In this document: positions 22,887-60,663 of the stretch, in pieces
Layout of the letters: every line of letters begins with the position of its first letter
How positions within the stretch are numbered: the stretch's first letter is position 1
Source: a virus
Lineage: Duplodnaviria > Caudoviricetes
DNA: 64,000 nt
Strand: one strand, 5' to 3'
IMG/VR virus record: IMGVR_UViG_3300030433_001804
Span: 1-64,000 of that record
Made by a program: the position numbers and the translations under genes
The notes under the pieces: model-generated
Seen by the model: the letters and a program-made list of their open reading frames with translations, nothing else
What the model was told of the DNA's origin: nothing
The model's database searches: none

Positions 22887-23801
22887 TCAAAACCATTCCT
22901 CCAAACTTTTCTGTATTCTTCCTGTTCTTATTGCTGATAAATCCCAACCCATAGATTCGTAAACAGGCTTTGCTTTATCTATGACCTGTTGTGCGTAGTG
23001 TTCCCAATCCGGTGTAAAATCCTTAAAATCAGCAAAGATAGTTCCCGATATAAACTCAGCAGGTTTTACTTCTTTAGTTAAGGGATTTACATAAGTCATA
23101 TTTGAATTCTTGACTTTTAAGAATACATAACTATCATCAAAGTTAGTGTTGTTATTTTGCCAAGCGTTAATTACACCCGCTACACCCGAACCAATAGTAG
23201 CCTTTTTTCCTTCCACAGTAGTAAAGGAAGAGACGGGTTCACCACACTTATGAATCCCATTCTTACCCTCATTCTGACCGCAAACTGTAATTTTTGTCAA
23301 TTCTTTTAGATTATATTTTCTACTACAATCCGGGCATTTTACGGTAAATCTTTCCGGTCTTAGGCGAGTTCTCTTAACTAACTTCTTGAAATCGTAGTTA
23401 CCATTTTTTACGCTCACATATGTTCTGTGCAAATAGGCATTTATTTTCTCCATTGGTTCTTTGTTAGCCCACATTTTCAAGACTTTGGTTTGGACTTCTT
23501 TAGCCATTTTAGTTTCGCTAACCCTCTTGGCAATAAATCCAGTCATGATAAATTTAGGCTCATCTAACCATTCACCGTCTTCCCAAGTAATCATACCTGC
23601 ATTTCTATTTTTAACTGTCCCTACACCTAGAGCATCAAAATACTTCTCAAACTCTAATACTACAGGGTGTTCTTGTAAACCCAAGATATTAGGGAAGTGT
23701 TCTCTAACACTTGCTTCTATCTCTTTGATAGCCTCTTGTGCCTTTTCAACTGAATCTATTTGCACATAGATTGAATCTGTATGTCCGTAAACTACTTTCA
23801 T
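22887..23801 (-). CDS. polB: DNA polymerase B, C-terminal subunit (motif C, thumb, PIP box)
   Basis: Starts MKVVYGHTDSIYV (ATG 23801), LEFEK, ends QKSLEEWF (PIP box). Confidence 0.9.
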   Translation of the reverse strand: MKVVYGHTDSIYVQIDSVEKAQEAIKEIEASVREHFPNILGLQEHPVVLEFEKYFDALGVGTVKNRNAGMITWEDGEWLDEPKFIMTGFIAKRVSETKMAKEVQTKVLKMWANKEPMEKINAYLHRTYVSVKNGNYDFKKLVKRTRLRPERFTVKCPDCSRKYNLKELTKITVCGQNEGKNGIHKCGEPVSSFTTVEGKKATIGSGVAGVINAWQNNNTNFDDSYVFLKVKNSNMTYVNPLTKEVKPAEFISGTIFADFKDFTPDWEHYAQQVIDKAKPVYESMGWDLSAIRTGRIQKSLEEWF

Positions 23802-23802
23802 C

Positions 23803-23949
23803 TTAACCAATCCTTTGATGTGTAATAATTCCAATTCTTTTACCATTGACATATAATGAGACTACATCATTATGAACCATGATAGTAGTAACATCATCTA
23901 TATATCTTCTAGCCCAATTGACGAGTTCTTTTTCTGTTTTATTATTCAT
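23803..23949 (-). CDS. Small hypothetical protein (48 aa) between polB halves
   Basis: MNNKTEKELVNWARRYIDD... read from sequence; ATGA overlap with upstream ORF. Confidence 0.5.
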   Translation of the reverse strand: MNNKTEKELVNWARRYIDDVTTIMVHNDVVSLYVNGKRIGIITHQRIG

Positions 23950-24495: not shown

Positions 24496-24735
24496 TTAGT
24501 TTTGTCCATCATCATAATAATCCTCTTCCATATCTTTTTCTGAGTAATCTTGATTAAGAAATGATAGGCTTAATTTACTCGAATCTTGATTGATTCCCTG
24601 TTCTATATTGATAATAGAAGCGTTACGCTTTAGGTTATTCATCATTTGGAATATCTCTTCTACTTCTTGTAAAGTAATATCCCATGTTTCTTCTGTATCG
24701 TAGTTTACTTTTACTGTTACATATTTTGTTTTCAT
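24496..24735 (-). CDS. Hypothetical protein
   Basis: ATGA overlap with stop of the polB N-terminal half. Confidence 0.55.
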   Translation of the reverse strand: MKTKYVTVKVNYDTEETWDITLQEVEEIFQMMNNLKRNASIINIEQGINQDSSKLSLSFLNQDYSEKDMEEDYYDDGQN

Positions 24736-26405
24736 ATTTCCAACTCCTTTGCTTTAAATGCGGCTAATCTAATTGCTTCTCTAGCACTAGCAGTAATACT
24801 AGCGGCTAGTTTTGGATTAGCCCAACTAAACCCTGTAAATCCAATGATGCCATAGAAAGATGAAGATAGCCTCTTTACTGCCATTTGATTATTATACCAT
24901 TTCATATACTCACCGTTTGGTTTTCCTCTAGCCTCTCTCATTTTGGCTTTGTATTCATCCCTTAGTTTTTTAAGTTCTAATACTGCTCTAGGCAGTAGTC
25001 CTAACTTGTCTGTTTTGAAGTAAATCATATCCTCACCTACAGGTTCGCTGAAATCTCTAGGAGTTAGGATATTAACTCCAAACTCAGTAGGCTCATCAGA
25101 AATAGTTTCCCAACTAATATTTCTAGCAATCATCATACTAGGATATAGACCTGCGAAATCAAAAGCGGCTACATTAAGATGTAATCCGTTTGTTCCTTCG
25201 CTAAGTGGGTCATATATCATAGCCCCTTGATACGCTTGTTTCTTTTCTTTCTTGTTTCCTGTTGGTGCTTTCCACCAAGCATTTCTCATGAAGTAAATAC
25301 TACCCATGTGAGAAGCAAAAAAGCAAGCATCAAATGGTGCTTTTAGTAGTCTTTGAAGTGCTAGAATAGCCTCACTACAATAGTTTGATTCATCAATTTC
25401 TACCATTAGTTTTACATCTAATAAAGCATATTCAAGATAAGTTTGTGTATCTTCTAACCATGCTCTACGATAAAACTCGTTTGGGTCGGGGAACTTTTCA
25501 GATACTAATTTGTTCTTACCTAATACTTCTTCCGATACATAATCTAAAGATAGCGAAGGTAATGTTCCTCTTTGTGAATCATTCCATTGACGCTCAAAAG
25601 CCATATCAAGATTCAAGGTTATTCTTCCACCAATCGGTTGTTCTATTTGTGAAAAACCTTTTTCATGATACATAAATTGATAGCCGTCTCTTTTGGTATT
25701 CTTTACTCCTTTAATAGAACCAATAGGCGACATAATCAATGGATTAAGCCCTACTGCACACGCTCTTTCAAGAAGTTTAGGAACATCAGCAAAATTTCCA
25801 AACCATGCAATCAACATATCGGGGTCTTTTACAACCATAGTTGTCATAAAGTTTTCAAGCATATCTTTTTCAGAAGTAAATATTCTCTTGATTTTTTTAG
25901 TTTCTTCATATGGTAAAACATATGTTTGTTCATTTTCTCGGTTAGGAAACCATACCCATTGATAATAATTCTTATCGTAATTATCATACGCTACAATAGT
26001 AGTAATCTTACCATCATGTTCTCCACCTTGTTGCCACTCCATATCCCAATACCATTTACGCATATCATATTCGGGCATATCGTGTAATTCATCTACACAG
26101 TATCTAAACTGATAAGGCACATCGGCCTCATATGTTTTAGAGAACATATCTTTGGCTTTTTTAATATCATAAGAAGTATCTACATATACTCTTTTTAGCG
26201 GAACTCCATCAATGTTTATCCAATCGCCTCTAACATAATCAAAATCTCTTTCGATATATTTACTAGGGCGATAAGTAGGTGGCTCTTTTTCAGACTCCTC
26301 TACATAGAAGTATGGCCTAAATTCTACTTGCTCAAACTTCCTTTCGTTGTTTTCTCTCCACGCTTTGTATATTGTTTTACCATCATCCATTCTGCTTATT
26401 ATCAT
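24732..26405 (-). CDS. polB: DNA polymerase B, N-terminal subunit (exonuclease, motifs A and B)
   Basis: FRPYFY, YEADV, WDMEW (ExoI), YALLD (ExoIII), YQGA, FDFAGLYPSMM (A), KRLSSSFYG (B). Confidence 0.92.
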   Translation of the reverse strand: MIISRMDDGKTIYKAWRENNERKFEQVEFRPYFYVEESEKEPPTYRPSKYIERDFDYVRGDWINIDGVPLKRVYVDTSYDIKKAKDMFSKTYEADVPYQFRYCVDELHDMPEYDMRKWYWDMEWQQGGEHDGKITTIVAYDNYDKNYYQWVWFPNRENEQTYVLPYEETKKIKRIFTSEKDMLENFMTTMVVKDPDMLIAWFGNFADVPKLLERACAVGLNPLIMSPIGSIKGVKNTKRDGYQFMYHEKGFSQIEQPIGGRITLNLDMAFERQWNDSQRGTLPSLSLDYVSEEVLGKNKLVSEKFPDPNEFYRRAWLEDTQTYLEYALLDVKLMVEIDESNYCSEAILALQRLLKAPFDACFFASHMGSIYFMRNAWWKAPTGNKKEKKQAYQGAMIYDPLSEGTNGLHLNVAAFDFAGLYPSMMIARNISWETISDEPTEFGVNILTPRDFSEPVGEDMIYFKTDKLGLLPRAVLELKKLRDEYKAKMREARGKPNGEYMKWYNNQMAVKRLSSSFYGIIGFTGFSWANPKLAASITASAREAIRLAAFKAKELEI

Positions 26406-38284: not shown

Positions 38285-39820
38285 TTATTCCTCCAATAAT
38301 ACTGCTACATCTGTAGTATAGAACAATTTTGCTATTGACATAGCAGTTAAGAAACTGTTCTTAGTTACCTTAACAGGGTCAAATATTCCTGCTACTTCCA
38401 AATCCATGTAATCACCAGTAAGGGCATTAAATCCTAAAGAACCCGCTAAATCATCATCATGCCAATTACCTTCATGATTACTATTAAGCAATAGTGTGTT
38501 ATATGGAGCGTAAAGGGAATGCGCTAAGAAATTGAAATCTGTTTCTACCTTATCACCTGCATGGGCTAATGAAGTCCCGCCACCCAAAATAATCCCTTCT
38601 GCTAATGCCGCTTTAGTAGCATTAAGAGCATCATCTAATCTCTCCTTCCTTTCTCTTAGTTCTAAGGAAGAAGAAGCACCGACCTTTATTGTTGCCACAC
38701 CACCCTTTAGTCTAGATATTCTAGATTTAATACGGGCTTTGTCGAAACCTTCCATGTCATCTAATTGACCCTTTAGAAGTTTTATTTGTTTTTCAGCATC
38801 ACCGATACCGCCAACTACAATTGTTTTTTCTTTAGTTACTGTAATGTTTTCACAACTACCAAAGTCACTTAATACAATATTAGTAGGGTCGTCTTTGCTC
38901 TCTTGAGTAAACAACTTACCATTTACTAATGATTGAATATCGGCCAATTCGTCTAGTTGTTTATCGCCAAAATTAGGTGCAAGTATGGCACAACATTCTA
39001 CCGTTTGATTCATTAGATTCATAACTAAATTATTTAGTGCTGAACCTGACATACCACCACAGAAAATAACCAGTGGCCTACTATTAGCGGAAGCCAATTC
39101 TAACATAGGAATTAAATCCTTAAAATTCTTAAAATGAATATTAGAAATAAAGATAAGAGGGTTATTGAATACAGTTCTCCCGTTAGCAGTATTGGCCATT
39201 AAATGACTAATATAGCCTTCAGTAAGTTCCATACCCTCTCTTATTACCAGTTCTGTATTATGTGATTTAGATTCTTCTACTGTAACAATACCGTCTCTAC
39301 CTACTTTAGCCAAAGCATCACTAATTAGTTTACCTAGAACTCTATCATTATTTGCCGCTATTGTAGCGACTTCAATAATATCAGCATCTTGTATTTCTTT
39401 AGCCATTGAATCTAATTGGTTTACCACTTGGTCTGTAAAATCATCAAGAAGACCCATGAATTCGTGAGTGGTTAAATCTAGGTTACTGTGATTATGTATT
39501 GCATTACAAAATGCTTGTGCTAAAATACAAGCAGTAGTAGTTCCATCACCGCTTCCTTCTTGTGCTTTATGTGCTAGGTTTTGAACCATCTGAATACCCA
39601 TCTGAACATAAGGGTCTTCGCTACTAATATGTCTTGTAATGGTTACTCCATCGTTAATAATAACAGGGGGATTACCTTGTAGTATAACCGTTTTGGCTTG
39701 TGGGCCAAGTGTAGGTTTTACTGTATTAGCAACTAAATTAATTCCTTCTAACAACTTTTCTTTTACTTCATTTCCATGTATTATCATTCTTCCACCAACC
39801 TTGTTTGTATTCCTCTCCAC
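38285..39820 (-). CDS. groEL: Group I chaperonin GroEL
   Basis: VKPTLGP, INDGVTI, GDGTTTA, VGRDGIVTVEES, APNFGD, GGVATIKVGA, DDALNATKAA, GIFDPVKV. Confidence 0.95.
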   Translation of the reverse strand: MERNTNKVGGRMIIHGNEVKEKLLEGINLVANTVKPTLGPQAKTVILQGNPPVIINDGVTITRHISSEDPYVQMGIQMVQNLAHKAQEGSGDGTTTACILAQAFCNAIHNHSNLDLTTHEFMGLLDDFTDQVVNQLDSMAKEIQDADIIEVATIAANNDRVLGKLISDALAKVGRDGIVTVEESKSHNTELVIREGMELTEGYISHLMANTANGRTVFNNPLIFISNIHFKNFKDLIPMLELASANSRPLVIFCGGMSGSALNNLVMNLMNQTVECCAILAPNFGDKQLDELADIQSLVNGKLFTQESKDDPTNIVLSDFGSCENITVTKEKTIVVGGIGDAEKQIKLLKGQLDDMEGFDKARIKSRISRLKGGVATIKVGASSSLELRERKERLDDALNATKAALAEGIILGGGTSLAHAGDKVETDFNFLAHSLYAPYNTLLLNSNHEGNWHDDDLAGSLGFNALTGDYMDLEVAGIFDPVKVTKNSFLTAMSIAKLFYTTDVAVLLEE

Positions 39821-55890: not shown

Positions 55891-56097
55891 CGGACATTAT
55901 ACTATATTATATATCATATAACATATAGATATTCTATCAATATAGATATAAGTTCAATTGAGAAGCACCCAAGGTAATGTTTAGACAGGGAGGGTAGAAA
56001 ATCTTAGACTAAAAGTTGTCATATGTTTATAATGTAAATAGCAAATGCTTGCTTTCTTTTGACCTATCTTACCATATGGTTGCGCTTTGTTTTAACC

Positions 56098-56262
56098 ATG
56101 TGTCGGTAGTCGGGGATTTCTACCCCGTAAAAGAGTCGTCACTCTACCTCAAACTTAAGTGGCCTTAATGATGGAAAATACAGTATCTCAACCGCACCCA
56201 TTATATGGATTGTTTAATGCATTCACAACTTTCCATCAATAAGGACACCAGACCCGACAAGG
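56098..56262. ncRNA. Candidate structured RNA element (~165 nt)
   Basis: TGTCGG/CCGACA closing stem, CCTTAATGATGGAAA/TTTCCATCAATAAGG stem, CGGGG/CCCCG and AGAGT/ACTCT hairpins; no ORF. Confidence 0.45.
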
Positions 56263-56266
56263 TGAT

Positions 56267-56509
56267 TTAACCAAGTGCGTTAAATAAATCCTCCACTATG
56301 TCATTCAACATATCATGCATAAGTGTAAATTTGACAGCGTTATCAATACCTGCCATGATTGCCTCCATGGTGATAATACCTATCATAGCGTCAGGTTCAT
56401 CAGTGAAGATAGTCATATCTGTGAAAACTGCTGATTGTATAGAATTATCAACATAATTTTTCATGTTTGGGCTAATGCTTGCGACTCTTTGAACTGCTGC
56501 TTTTGACAT
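56267..56509 (-). CDS. Cassette gene, hypothetical (80 aa)
   Basis: Divergent from palindrome 56557; ACCATA element 33 nt before ATG. Confidence 0.65.
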   Translation of the reverse strand: MSKAAVQRVASISPNMKNYVDNSIQSAVFTDMTIFTDEPDAMIGIITMEAIMAGIDNAVKFTLMHDMLNDIVEDLFNALG

Positions 56510-56617
56510 GCTAAGACTATTTATTATCTTATTAGATATGGTGTAAACAAAGCAACACCATATGGTTGTAACGCTTTGTTAAAACAACCCTAAGTAATAG
56601 GTCATTTAATCTATAAC

Positions 56618-56917
56618 ATGAGAAAAATAACACAAGACGCAATAAGAGCCTTTGAAAATGGATATAATTTCAAGCGAGGTAATACCCGTGTAATAGTTGG
56701 CCCATACTACGGTGAATATTCGGTTCGTCTTTTACTACATGGGAACTTAATCGCTGAAAGAACCTCAAACGGTGTATATATTCAAGACGGTGGTTGGCAG
56801 TCTAACACCACAAAAGAACGCTTAAACGGTTTGAGTGGGGTTAATATCGTTCAAAGGAATTGGCAATGGTATTTGAACGGTGAGGCTTGGAACGGCCACA
56901 CAATCCGCATTAATTAG
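56618..56917 (+). CDS. Cassette gene, conserved phage-type hypothetical protein
   Basis: LHGNLIA...GWQSNTTKERLNGL...QRNWQWY; ACCCTA 31 nt upstream; GAAA and TTCG hairpins downstream. Confidence 0.75.
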   Translation: MRKITQDAIRAFENGYNFKRGNTRVIVGPYYGEYSVRLLLHGNLIAERTSNGVYIQDGGWQSNTTKERLNGLSGVNIVQRNWQWYLNGEAWNGHTIRIN

Positions 56918-57047
56918 GCGAAAGCCCCCTTCGGGGTATAACAAAGCGTTACCATATGGTTGCACTTTGTAAAAACCATACTAATATGACATGAAATCCT
57001 ATCTAGTGCTTCAACGGGAATAGGAGCAAAATAAGGAGGTAAAAAAT

Positions 57048-57575
57048 ATGAAACAAGCAAACTGGAATGTAAATACAAGTAAAGTAAGGGCTTGGGCTGA
57101 AAAGCAACCAAAGTCCGATAACCTGAGTGCGGTTTTATTGTCCCTATCATTAGGTGACAATGCCGCTACTGACGAATTAAGAAGCACATATTGGACAGCA
57201 ATCCGTTCAATTGGTTCTACTATGGATGGTTTTCCATCAGCCCGCAAAGGCCGAGAATCAACTCTAACCGAGGAACAACAGATTGCATTGGCGAATGTGG
57301 AGAGTGTGGTAGAAACTGCCTTTGCTTCAATCCCTACTGAATACCACGCAACACTACTGGCCGTAATAGTTCCTCACGGGCGAACTGGCGGAGTTTATTC
57401 ATCAATGGACGAAATGACTGCTTACTATGTCAATCAAGCACATAACTACATGGTCACTTCTATCAAAGAAGGCCGATTCGCTGGTAAGTTGAATAAGGCG
57501 GGTGTTCCTCAAATCACCCCTCGCCCTACAAAGGCTGAGAAAGACGCTCAAATGGAGGACTCAGAAGAGGTTTGA
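57048..57575 (+). CDS. Cassette gene, paralog A
   Basis: AAGGAGGT SD; LRSTYWTAIRSIGST, ARKGRES, PHGR shared with 58838-59335. Confidence 0.85.
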   Translation: MKQANWNVNTSKVRAWAEKQPKSDNLSAVLLSLSLGDNAATDELRSTYWTAIRSIGSTMDGFPSARKGRESTLTEEQQIALANVESVVETAFASIPTEYHATLLAVIVPHGRTGGVYSSMDEMTAYYVNQAHNYMVTSIKEGRFAGKLNKAGVPQITPRPTKAEKDAQMEDSEEV

Positions 57576-57710
57576 GCCTAAACTGCAACTATTCCCGTTG
57601 TAGCCCCATATTATTCCCTTCGGGGTTTAATTGGGGTTTAACAAAGCAATACCATATGGTTGTGATATCTTTGGTATCTAAAACCATATACAGAATTCAT
57701 TGATATTCTA

Positions 57711-58281
57711 TGTCGGAGGTCATGAGCCGACAGGGATTGACAGAATACCCTCTTGGTCGGGGGTAATGTGCAGGTATTCGTGTAGTGCGACATAACAGTT
57801 TATGATGGGGTAATCCTTGAGTTGAAACTGCTCTATGAAAGTTCGTAATCCTCAAAAGGGGTTTGGTCTAACTAACCAAATGAATATACTTGGCTTGATG
57901 GCTTCTAGAATAGGAGCGACCTAACCGAATGTAGGCGGTATCTACATCATCATTAGTGATACTCAATTCACTATCCCACCTTTTATTCCATATGGCGGAT
58001 TGGCCATAAACCATATAGAAACGAGCCGAAACACAGCGTGGTAAGACAGACGGGTAAACAATACAGTAAGCCATGGCGACCTGTAGGGAAATCAAGAGGA
58101 AGTGCAGTTAATCGGATATGTATGGAGTAGGCGAAGTTTCTATTATACTCATTTGGTGCTTAAGCGATAGATAAAAGCGATGATAGTTCACCATGAAAAA
58201 CGCTATACAGGCATATCAATAAAAATCAAATTACAATAAGGATTGTTCCCTGTTACTGTGTAGCCCTTTCATGGGGTTTTT
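57711..58281 (+). ncRNA. Candidate large structured ncRNA (~550-570 nt)
   Basis: Fills a full cassette slot with promoter-like element and terminator-like hairpin, but no + strand ORF of 60 aa; numerous stems. Confidence 0.6.
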
Positions 58282-58349
58282 CAAAGAACAACCATATGGT
58301 ATGGTGCTTTGCTAAACATACCCTACATAATGAATTTAATTTAATTATC

Positions 58350-58703
58350 ATGAACGCAGAAAATAAAGAGTTTAGAGTTGGATTATGTGCAGGACGACAC
58401 GATATCATTGATGGCGATATTGAGATTAAGGATTTTATATTTCCCAATCCTATTGAAAACCCTAATGACTTTGAGGCTCTAAGATTTCAAGCCAATGATA
58501 AGTTAGAGGATATATGGTTCGCAGGTGGTAAGATTTATCTTTATGTTACCGGGCTTGGTCAAGCCTTGACCGTGGTTTTATCCGAGGCCATGCACCTATT
58601 CGCTTTAACTGAGTATGATATGGAGTTTACCGTAATGCATTATGACAGGGAAACCGGGACATACAAAGGTCATAACTTCTTCGGGGGTGAAGAACCCATC
58701 TGA
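58350..58703 (+). CDS. Cassette gene, alpha/beta hypothetical protein
   Basis: Start ATG 58350, 30 nt after ACCCTA; GLCAGRH and LYVTGL..AL motifs; GCC-TTCG-GGC hairpin after stop. Confidence 0.75.
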   Translation: MNAENKEFRVGLCAGRHDIIDGDIEIKDFIFPNPIENPNDFEALRFQANDKLEDIWFAGGKIYLYVTGLGQALTVVLSEAMHLFALTEYDMEFTVMHYDRETGTYKGHNFFGGEEPI

Positions 58704-58837
58704 AGCCTTCGGGCGTTTAACCAAAGTAACACCATATGGTTGGGATTGCTTTGCATATACCGACCATATACGATTAGCCATTGTATCTATTGCTCAGGGG
58801 GATTGAGTGTTAAACTTTAGTTTAGGAGGTAACAAAA

Positions 58838-59335
58838 ATGAAAATAGAAAATTGGAATATAAACACAGCAAAGGTTCAACTATGGTTGGATAAAGAAGAC
58901 AGGGGAGAAAATGGTCAAGCCATTACTCTCTCTATGGCATTAGGAAATGCCTGTGATAACGATGATTTGAGGTCTACTTATTGGACTGCAATTAGAAGTA
59001 TCGGTAGCACATTTACAGATTTCCCGATGGCTCGAAAAGGCCGAGAATCGTCATTACCAGAAGATATACTCCTATCTGCGACTTCTGTAAGGAATGCGGT
59101 TATAACTGCCTTTGCGGGTATTACTGATGCAGATATTATTTTGAAGGTCATACTACCTCATGGTCGCTCCGGTGGCTCATATGAAACAATTGATGACCTA
59201 GCGGAATCATACGGACAAAAAGCCTTTGATGCTCTTGTTAAGGGATATAAGGAAAACCGTTGGGATGGTTCAATGGAGGGCAATGTCCCTCTAATGTCTC
59301 CACCACCTGTAAAAAACAAGGAGGCTAACGAATAG
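58838..59335 (+). CDS. Cassette gene, paralog B
   Basis: AGGAGGT SD; clear paralog of 57048-57575. Confidence 0.85.
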   Translation: MKIENWNINTAKVQLWLDKEDRGENGQAITLSMALGNACDNDDLRSTYWTAIRSIGSTFTDFPMARKGRESSLPEDILLSATSVRNAVITAFAGITDADIILKVILPHGRSGGSYETIDDLAESYGQKAFDALVKGYKENRWDGSMEGNVPLMSPPPVKNKEANE

Positions 59336-59447
59336 GTTTAACGCTTATTCCCCCTGTAGCCCCTGTGGTTACGGTTATGCAAAGCAAACCATATGGTTGT
59401 AGTTACTTTGGAACGACAACCCTAATACTATCAATTGAGAAATAGAT

Positions 59448-60158
59448 ATGTCAAGCGATATAACCTATGTAAGAACTATGAAGATTAACTACGGTAAAAA
59501 GATGGGCGACCTGCAATTTGCCAAATTTGCCAATGACCTGCAAAAGAAAGGTATTACTATACGCCCTCATTTTGGTAGCAAACCTACATATGGATTTAAT
59601 GAGAAAACTGAAACTAAGAAGACCTATCAAATCGTTATGGACGATAAGGTTGTATTTGAAACCAAATATATAACTGATAGAGATGCTGCTTATGATGCGT
59701 TTAGTCCTTTTCTGACTCTAGAAACTTGTGATGCTCAAATAGAAAAAACCTCTAAGGATTGGACTGAGGTAGAAGGTAGCGTAATTGAAATTGATTTTGA
59801 CCTTGAAGGGGAGCAATACAAATGGTATGACCATGAGATTAATTACCAAAACGGACAATCTATGACCATTAGGTTAGCCAACTCTAACACTGGTGTTATT
59901 CTTAAATTCACCACTACATGGAATCCTGACGGTATTCAGCGCAAAAAAACTATTGAAGAAGTTATGGTTAATCAAGTATTGAATGACATGGCTAAGATTC
60001 AAGGCACTATTGAGGGTCGTTTGAAACTAAAGAAGTATGGCTATGATGTTGAAAATGCGTCTATTGACTGTCATTTTGATGCTAAGACTGAAAGCCGTAG
60101 CGAATGCGCTCCTGACATCATTAACCGTGTTAAGGAGGCTAAGAAGGCTCATTCTTAA
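59448..60158 (+). CDS. Cassette gene, hypothetical (236 aa)
   Basis: ACCCTA 29 nt upstream of ATG; hairpin then palindrome downstream. Confidence 0.8.
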   Translation: MSSDITYVRTMKINYGKKMGDLQFAKFANDLQKKGITIRPHFGSKPTYGFNEKTETKKTYQIVMDDKVVFETKYITDRDAAYDAFSPFLTLETCDAQIEKTSKDWTEVEGSVIEIDFDLEGEQYKWYDHEINYQNGQSMTIRLANSNTGVILKFTTTWNPDGIQRKKTIEEVMVNQVLNDMAKIQGTIEGRLKLKKYGYDVENASIDCHFDAKTESRSECAPDIINRVKEAKKAHS

Positions 60159-60663
60159 GCCATAAACCCGTAAGTCCTAATTAGGCAGGGTATAGCAAAG
60201 CAATACCATATGGTTGTATAGCCTAAAAGATTACACAACCATATGGCTTTGTTTCAAAATTTTTATTTTACTGTTCGTTTAAATGAGTGGCTTTAAATCA
60301 ACAAAAGAGGCAGTTTTGCTTAATATATTAGCCTACTTTGCCCATACTATTATATCATGGACTGTTCTGCCTTTTACTAAGCAACTAATATGTTCGTGAG
60401 AATAACAACTTATGCTATTTAGCCCACTATACTAGAATAAGAAACAATGATTAAACAGTCTAAACAAATAAACAAACAATACTGCTAATATAATAAAACG
60501 ATTTAAACGAACAATGCTATAACGGGCCGCAACTATAAACTTTAAAGGAGAATAATTAAAGAAACAACTTTTTATCCTGTTTATATAAACCATATAACCT
60601 AAAAAAAAACGCAAGTGCCAAATAAATTCCGCCACATTTTTTGAGAAAAAAGGAGATGATACG

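Follow-up and report, generated by a model that had tools for sequence, protein, structure and literature searches.

Positions 57711 to 58281 of a 64,000-nucleotide (nt) stretch of virus DNA (IMG/VR record IMGVR_UViG_3300030433_001804, positions 1 to 64,000; the whole stretch is called the window below) hold a conserved, non-coding, structured RNA on the plus (+) strand. The RNA is a composite of a divergent version of a known domain, the manA motif (Rfam RF01745), and two undescribed domains, and not a wholly new large RNA. At somewhat better than even odds (about 0.55), it is a stand-alone, multi-domain RNA of a magrovirus-like marine virus which acts via RNA–RNA assembly; it would presumably be made as a separate transcript. 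An initial annotation, based on the letters of the DNA, had described a structured non-coding RNA of ~570 nt in a cassette slot, a description borne out by the conservation of the unit in relatives and the covariation of its helices.

Relatives were gathered by blastn against loci fetched via a flanking protein and by three pattern scans. They comprise about 10 IMG/VR contigs and, from Tara, GOS and further marine collections, 53 metagenome loci, the latter obtained by means of two invariant words of the second domain, domain B; one inspected locus, L037, is a chance match. Conservation of the unit extends to ~50 marine contigs, viral or metagenomic. At 95% identity, the 46 units that have a palindrome on both sides form 30 clusters, on which all lineage counts and the MAFFT alignment rest. 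Identity to the window ranges from 93% down to ~66%. Blastn of the unit against GenBank phages returned no match, a scan of GTDB genomes with the domain B words gave two matches, both due to chance and with nothing similar beyond the fixed words, and a 16-mer scan of viral contigs gave mostly chance matches. Genome searches with RF01745 are less sensitive than cmscan and missed known copies.

On the + strand of the window, no open reading frame (ORF) is found from 57711 to the end hairpin, and 24 of 30 lineages have none inside the unit. ORFs in the 30 relatives vary in place, strand and length, none being common to them. An antisense frame of 75 amino acids (aa) is open in the window (57868-58095, − strand), stops are few in one antisense frame of several relatives, and in domain B the H3 hairpin apex and UGGCCA both read as perfect palindromes at the DNA level. 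Such features would speak for a unit that is not an RNA gene at all, but a coding region in either sense that has decayed or is unusual, or else an element acting as DNA, for instance an origin or an array of protein-binding sites. This reading is largely refuted and very improbable. Substitutions in L078, L002 and L072 are spread evenly over the three codon positions, indels in a 93%-identical relative shift the antisense frame, and the spacer inside domain B varies among relatives by non-multiples of three. A coding region in either sense was rejected on the grounds of the even codon phases, the frame-shifting indels and the unconserved ORFs, in agreement with the earlier remark that the unit contains no credible ORF. 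The sequences of the palindromes vary from lineage to lineage, so that a DNA-binding site common to all is lacking. Furthermore, paired cells of the alignment contain 155 G·U against 11 A·C combinations, from which it follows that selection acts on the + strand RNA.

The unit had at first been left without a family. A cmscan comparison with Rfam places its first 272 nt in manA from end to end (model positions 1-192 of 192; 43.7 bits; E ~6e-10 for the region searched), with the match beginning exactly at 57711. Relatives likewise give full-length matches at 39.4-54.4 bits; altogether, 13 full-model matches (the window and 12 relatives) were obtained, each with E ≤1.2e-06. An Rfam E-value scan (E ≤10, 57550-58350) returned manA only, the rest being noise, and a scan of the whole window at gathering scores returned nothing. 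The suggestion of a possibly new large viral RNA thus holds for two domains that have not been described before and fails for the 5′ part, which is a divergent manA. The elements of this part, domain A, are as follows.

57711-57982 (+): domain A, divergent manA-like RNA, defined by the Rfam RF01745 match and covariation.
57711-57732 (+): hairpin P1, UGUCGG/CCGACA; each of the 29 relatives has a hairpin there, and its stem occurs in at least 8 sequence versions.
57733-57737 with 57973-57977 (+): closing long-range helix GGGAU/AUCCC, the outer bracketed helix of the manA model.
57771-57892 (+): junction helix CAGGUAU (57771-57777)/AUACUUG (57886-57892) and the part it encloses; 7 of 7 pairs compensatory.
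57778-57790 (+): hairpin e, stem UCG/CGA, loop UGUAGUG (UAGU at 57783-57786), the GUGGUG-loop hairpin of the manA model.
57791-57837 (+): three-tier hairpin (CAUA/UAUG, CAGUUU/AAACUG and an apical hairpin), within an 86-nt insert in the manA model.
57861-57881 (+): hairpin Hc, GUUUGG/CCAAAU, loop UCUAACUAA (ACUA at 57871-57874); 6 pairs, 5 compensatory.
57895-57953 (+): helix UUGAUGG/UCAUCAU enclosing hairpins 57902-57916 and 57930-57946; 7 pairs, 6 compensatory.
57954-57977 (+): last hairpin of domain A, UAGUGA/UCACUA, followed by the AUCCC strand, from the manA model, covariation and per-sequence folds.

In the 30-lineage alignment, the 54 pairs in 11 helices of domain A are paired in 93.6% of cells, and 36 of them show compensatory changes. 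Controls with partners slid by 1-3 columns reach 41-46% paired cells and 11-17 compensatory pairs, and none of 500 shuffles attained the observed values. The helices were chosen partly from the same alignment, the main ones coinciding with the independently built Rfam model; one counted helix held three invariant G·U pairs that are an alignment artefact, the real part of this helix being a 3-base-pair stem of the manA model. Four of the five pairs of the closing long-range helix are compensatory, with 95% of cells paired. The 86-nt insert consists of the conserved three-tier hairpin and Hc, both with many compensatory changes; according to per-sequence folds, the architecture of the three-tier hairpin is found in all relatives with differing stem sequences. 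The GU[N]GUG loop of hairpin e (57781-57787) is complementary to the loop of Hc (57867-57875), the pair being UAGU/ACUA in the window. Across ~28 distinct sequences this loop pair covaries between three states: N=A with ACUA(C) in 17, N=U with ACAA in 6, and N=G with ACCA or CCA in 4-5, the last (GUGGUG with ACCA) being the loop pair of the canonical manA consensus. The covariation supports a UAGU/ACUA loop–loop contact, which may form within one molecule or between molecules. The 5′ half of the RNA is homologous to manA and folds like it, with P1, the closing helix, the junction helices and the loop–loop contact in common.

Domain A is followed by a second domain, which shows no Rfam match beyond noise at E ≤10 and occurs as a single copy in this genome.

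57985-58141 (+): domain B, conserved, closed by AGAAAC (58017-58022)/GUUUCU (58136-58141) and GCC (58025-58027)/GGC (58130-58132).
57990-58016 (+): hairpin H1, AUAUGG/CCAUAU, presenting UGGCCA (58001-58006); stems differ among relatives.
58063-58084 (+): hairpin H3, outer stem ACAG/CUGU, apical palindrome GCCAUGGC (58070-58077, loop CAUG).

Four words of domain B, GGCCAU, GAAAC, AGCCGAAACAC and AUGGAGUAGGC, are invariant in all 30 lineages, and invariant stretches reach 11-12 nt. Because its bases never vary, the closing helix is neither backed nor refuted by covariation, and RNAalifold run on the MAFFT alignment of the domain returns invariant pairs only; the secondary structure proposed for domain B is thus tentative. 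H1 takes the forms CUAUGG/CCAUAG, AUUAGUG/CACUAAU and GAUUGG/CCAAUC in relatives, with weak alignment-based support, and in L066 its UGGCCA is replaced by CGGCCG, which keeps the palindrome. H3 lies at the same place in ~27-28 of 30 lineages, a count that was not blind, the script having searched for palindromes. Its 4-nt apex is self-complementary in every version (CAUG, UAUA, CUAG, CGCG), often within a perfect palindrome of 8-26 nt. The apical loops of the domain A insert (GUAA, AAAA, AAGU, GAAU) are not self-complementary. That four palindromic loops would arise by chance on one covarying hairpin (~1 in 16 per change) is unlikely. A metagenome contig of 1121 nt, L076, shows a tandem duplication of the 5′ half of domain B (UUCCUUUGG to GCCGAAACACAGCGUAGUAA), which is either a natural variant or an assembly artefact.

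The unit ends in a variable tail, domain C, which has been found in several combinations with the other two domains.

58142-58265 (+): domain C, variable tail with two stems and a conserved loop motif.
58154-58158 with 58189-58193 (+): stem C1, UGGUG/CACCA, enclosing UUAAGCGA...GCGAUGAUAG.
58202-58210 with 58256-58264 (+): stem C2, GCUAUACAG/CUGUGUAGC, with an A/U-rich loop ending in the conserved UUCCCUG (58246-58252).
Arrangement A-B-C: the window, L002, L003.
Arrangement A-C: L004, L018, L030.
Arrangement A-C-B: L042, L047, L070.
Arrangement A-B: L067, L075.
Arrangement B-C, with its own promoter and no domain A: L048.
Arrangement A-B followed by a 75-92-aa Lys/Arg-rich ORF with a Shine-Dalgarno sequence: L034, L039, L063, L064, L088.

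As read by eye, C1 and C2 change in a compensatory manner in L003, L004, L042, L070 and L081; in other relatives the tail is absent, replaced or moved. The tail motif UUCCCUG has no consistent RNA partner among relatives: a partner in domain B, CAGGGAAAC, fits some lineages and fails in others. In one sub-lineage the tail is replaced by the small basic ORF (in L034, 584-841, − strand), which begins with MRK(A/R)QK ~25 nt after domain B, is preceded by the Shine-Dalgarno sequence AAGGUGAU and matches nothing in Pfam or PHROG.

With these domains in place, the ten stems drawn in the initial annotation can be sorted. Six (TGTCGG/CCGACA, 57746-57765, 57862-57880, 57901-57917, 57929-57947 and 57954-57973) are upheld by covariation or per-sequence folds. 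Stem 57991-58008 is ambiguous, the competing AUAUGG (57990-57995)/CCAUAU (58011-58016) fitting the relatives better. The remaining three are unsupported: stem 58125-58150 is incompatible with the invariant helix that closes domain B, relatives lack GATATG/CATATC, and the long-range clamp ACAGGGA/TCCCTGT is at odds with three observations. In L074, the 5′ strand of this clamp has changed together with its manA partner (GACAU/AUGUC), the tail still reading AUCCCUG; L048 has the tail motif without having domain A; and the best duplex partner of the motif varies between relatives.

The modular arrangements bear on the question of whether the RNA is a gene of its own, as does the layout of the locus. 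The unit occupies one slot in an array of short, single-gene, + strand units at 56071-60246, the borders of which are marked by repeated elements.

57642-57673 (+): intergenic palindrome CAAAG-N4-ACCATATGGT-N8-CTTTG, read directly from the sequence and found ahead of every array unit.
57680-57691 (+): promoter-like box AAAACCATATAC (ACCATA at 57683-57688), ~23-28 nt ahead of the first paired base.
58263-58281 (+): weak hairpin CCC/GGG of ~3-4 base pairs with TTTTT, the presumed 3′ end, just before the next palindrome.

Ahead of the RNA unit, the palindrome comprises CAAAG at 57642, the core ACCATATGGT at 57651-57660 and CTTTG at 57669. All 9 exact ACCATATGG sites in the 64-kb window fall within the array, and 31 matches with at most one mismatch are found versus 12.3 expected; in relatives, the palindrome element mostly lies 362-398 nt upstream of the domain B anchor. 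Equivalent ACC(A/C)TA boxes occur at matching offset in neighbouring genes, and the AAAACCATATAC/ACCATA box would act as a promoter. The first paired base, 57711, lies 60 nt past the palindrome core, and three neighbouring genes that lack a Shine-Dalgarno sequence have their ATG 60-61 nt past it. In the array as a whole, leaderless units have their ATG or first RNA base at +60/61, as against ~+97-107 where a strong Shine-Dalgarno sequence is present. The start near 57711 which had been predicted from ACCATA at 57683 is consistent with this leaderless spacing as well as with the beginning of the manA match. As for the proposed terminator, a hairpin with a T-run is present, and relatives have similar ones ahead of the next unit's palindrome; the one in the window is, however, weak (~3-4 base pairs, 5 T) and is not called by a bacterial terminator scan. 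No sigma-70 promoter was called at the unit borders, nor any sigma-70-like promoter in the array. The unit ends are deduced from the repeated layout because the bacterial-type scan calls neither promoter nor terminator.

Two further units of the array are of note in their own right. The first one after the palindrome at 56071, at 56090-56265 (+), has no ORF and a multibranch fold with UGUCGG/CCGACA as its closing stem; L002 has a copy of 90% identity, apart from a ~57-nt deletion, and L003 one of 73% identity. This unit may be a second small RNA. The cassette at 56618-56917 (+) is a 99-aa gene matching Pfam PF23790 Kyano_Gp96 (E 1.9e-21) and phrog_554. Kyano_Gp96 is a protein family of T4-like cyanophages, a group that also carries canonical manA RNAs.

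Own-unit status is thus supported by the +60 promoter spacing, the end hairpin with its T-run and the lack of an internal ORF in 24 of 30 lineages, and stand-alone function by the recombination of the domains as modules and by the occurrence of domain B behind its own promoter in L048. In the mechanism proposed, transcription of the + strand would start from the promoter-like element of the array and end at the hairpin and T-run. The product would work as RNA, forming oligomers via RNA–RNA contacts by analogy with canonical manA, for which pentamer-based decamers and a 60-mer cage held by intermolecular kissing loops have been described in a cryo-electron microscopy preprint (bioRxiv 10.64898/2026.07.01.735769). 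Domain B might add two-fold symmetric contacts via the self-complementary apex of H3, and perhaps via UGGCCA. The assembly could serve as a scaffold during infection, sequester a host or viral factor, or act as a decoy.

Several observations weigh against this proposal. Neither the window nor any relative reaches the RF01745 gathering score of 55.2 bits. Single-sequence minimum free energy z-scores of +0.23 (+ strand) and +0.33 (− strand) indicate a fold no more stable than shuffles, and the structural support is for this reason wholly comparative; for the hand-drawn structure of domain B, the number of compensatory pairs is no better than in shuffles. The two ends of the unit and its expression as a transcript are predictions drawn from the layout of the array. 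With 4 nt, the loop of H3 is short for kissing, and contact would require a strand-exchanged duplex; self-assembly has been seen solely for canonical manA, in vitro, in the preprint cited above. Finally, 5 of 30 lineages have an ORF with a Shine-Dalgarno sequence immediately downstream of domain B, and in most relatives a p165/p175-family gene occupies the slot following the RNA; both would fit a role in cis.

Such a role is the main rival, although it appears considerably less probable than a stand-alone RNA. Domains A and B would form a riboswitch-like leader which senses a ligand or condition and controls the downstream gene. This gene would be the ORF adjoining domain B in those relatives that carry one and, in the window, a gene at 58350-58703 reached by read-through of the weak terminator. 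Canonical manA usually resides in 5′ untranslated regions (UTRs) and was proposed as a riboswitch candidate (Weinberg et al. 2010, PMC2864571), the invariant, unpaired 11-12-nt stretches of domain B resemble a ligand-binding core, and the ORF ~25 nt past domain B might provide an expression platform. However, the end hairpin is not preceded by an ORF in the window or in 24 of 30 lineages, the window has no such platform, and the next gene possesses a complete promoter element of its own. This gene is not constant either, being p117 in the window (cassette 58350-58703) and p165-like elsewhere. The shuffled order and content of the domains (A-C, A-C-B, B-C) are hard to reconcile with one aptamer and one expression platform. 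Moreover, manA is still without a known ligand after 15 years, and no ligand candidate has emerged here.

The comparison with canonical manA reveals shared as well as differing features. The window RNA shares the whole-model match, P1 followed by the 5′ strand of the closing helix, and the marine viral setting. Its junctions UGACAGAAUA and GGUAAUGUG correspond to UGACUGAAUAA and GGUAAgGUG in the consensus, and both RNAs have the GUNGUG-loop hairpin with a complementary partner loop as well as a 3′ hairpin followed by AUCCCACCUU (ACCUU tail). In contrast, its score of 43.7 bits is low when compared with the ~100 bits of a cyanophage manA (PMC9964418), and the two central hairpins of the model (~positions 78-120) are replaced by 86 nt with conserved hairpins of their own. 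About 300 nt of additional conserved RNA, domains B and C, follow. The window RNA does not reside in a 5′ UTR, a position seen in just 5 of 30 related lineages, and its carrier is magrovirus-like rather than a cyanophage or gammaproteobacterium.

ROOL, GOLLD and OLE RNAs resemble the present one in length (several hundred nt), in their many conserved helices, in lacking an ORF, in occurring in phages or mobile elements and in probably acting by oligomerisation. They differ in that no match to their Rfam models was obtained at E ≤10, so the unit belongs to neither ROOL nor GOLLD; the RNA described here is modular, with three separable domains, and its oligomerisation is a prediction. Precedents for the palindromic tips are hairpins of the human immunodeficiency virus 1 (HIV-1) DIS type and the strand-exchanged dimers of EGFOA (2026 preprint), with which they share an H3 apex that stays self-complementary despite sequence change and a large loop containing the 6-nt palindrome UGGCCA. 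Unlike the HIV-1 DIS type, the H3 loop has 4 nt, which makes a classical kissing complex unlikely, and dimerisation is here deduced from base sequence. A more far-reaching proposal is that magroviruses make an RNA-only nano-assembly in which pentamer loops of domain A and two-fold contacts of domain B build a shell larger than, or closed differently from, that of canonical manA, acting as a compartment, scaffold or decoy in archaeal infection, with domain B as a new RNA family that also acts alone. Taken as a whole, this proposal is speculative and rather unlikely to hold in full.

A third possibility concerns the neighbouring genes. The paralogs p175 and p165, at 57048-57575 and 58838-59335 (+), bracket the RNA cassette and possess strong Shine-Dalgarno sequences and ~100-nt leaders. 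In nearly all relatives with enough flank, one or both members of this family lie within ~0.3-2.5 kb of the RNA, in varying order. The RNA could accordingly be imagined to bind a protein, serving as a ribonucleoprotein scaffold or sponge whose invariant domain B strands and UUCCCUG motif are recognised by a viral protein, e.g., p175/p165, or by a host protein. The invariant stretches of domain B would be compatible with such binding, as would the conservation of UUCCCUG and AAUUACAAU in the tail without a consistent RNA partner. Yet the linkage may reflect no more than the shared gene order of related viruses, and the paralogs have no match in Pfam, PHROG, PDB or the ESM Atlas, hence none that would suggest RNA binding; the protein-binding explanation is held to be less probable still than the cis-acting leader. 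Within a few kb of the RNA cassette, tRNA genes are present in some relatives (L004, 299-383; L006, 706-789; L018, 6212-6295 and 10132-10204; L062, 4802-4885), several of them with a long variable arm.

The stand-alone reading, to which the highest probability is assigned, places the RNA in a virus with a putative archaeal host. The source record is a 96-kb virus genome, complete according to CheckV. Its B-family DNA polymerase (PolB) is split over two ORFs on the − strand (24732-26405 and 22887-23852, ~880 nt apart), with the exonuclease and the start of the polymerase domain in one and the C-terminal part in the other. Published group B1 magroviruses have PolB split in the same way (PMC5434244). 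The chaperonin at 38285-39820 is of the GroEL type (NCBIfam), not a thermosome; further genes encode an archaeal-type RFC small subunit, an ATP-dependent ligase, a UvrD helicase and a tail tube protein, and the polymerase is nearest to those of Halorubrum tailed viruses. On the basis of this gene content the genome looks like a magrovirus of group B/B1. Magroviruses are putative viruses of marine group II archaea, the archaeal host being inferred in the literature (PMC5434244), and the archaeal-virus setting put forward in the initial annotation is in keeping with this assignment. A search of the available literature found no report of manA-like RNAs in archaeal viruses or of the extra domains, which does not prove that no such report exists.

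Since 2010, manA has been an orphan RNA, first proposed to be a riboswitch and, in the 2026 preprint, reported to form RNA-only decamers and a 60-mer cage. The occurrence of a distant manA branch in putative archaeal viruses, as a separate gene instead of a 5′ UTR, favours an autonomous role for manA-type RNAs as RNA molecules. It also widens the range of the family, from bacterial viruses to putative archaeal ones. The Kyano_Gp96-type neighbour hints that cassettes may be exchanged between marine viruses whose hosts belong to different domains, bacteria and archaea. The two conserved domains without a described family are new, one of them with invariant cores and palindromic tips across lineages, and the module series A-C, A-B, B-C and A-B-C constitutes a natural set for testing how RNA quaternary structure is built.
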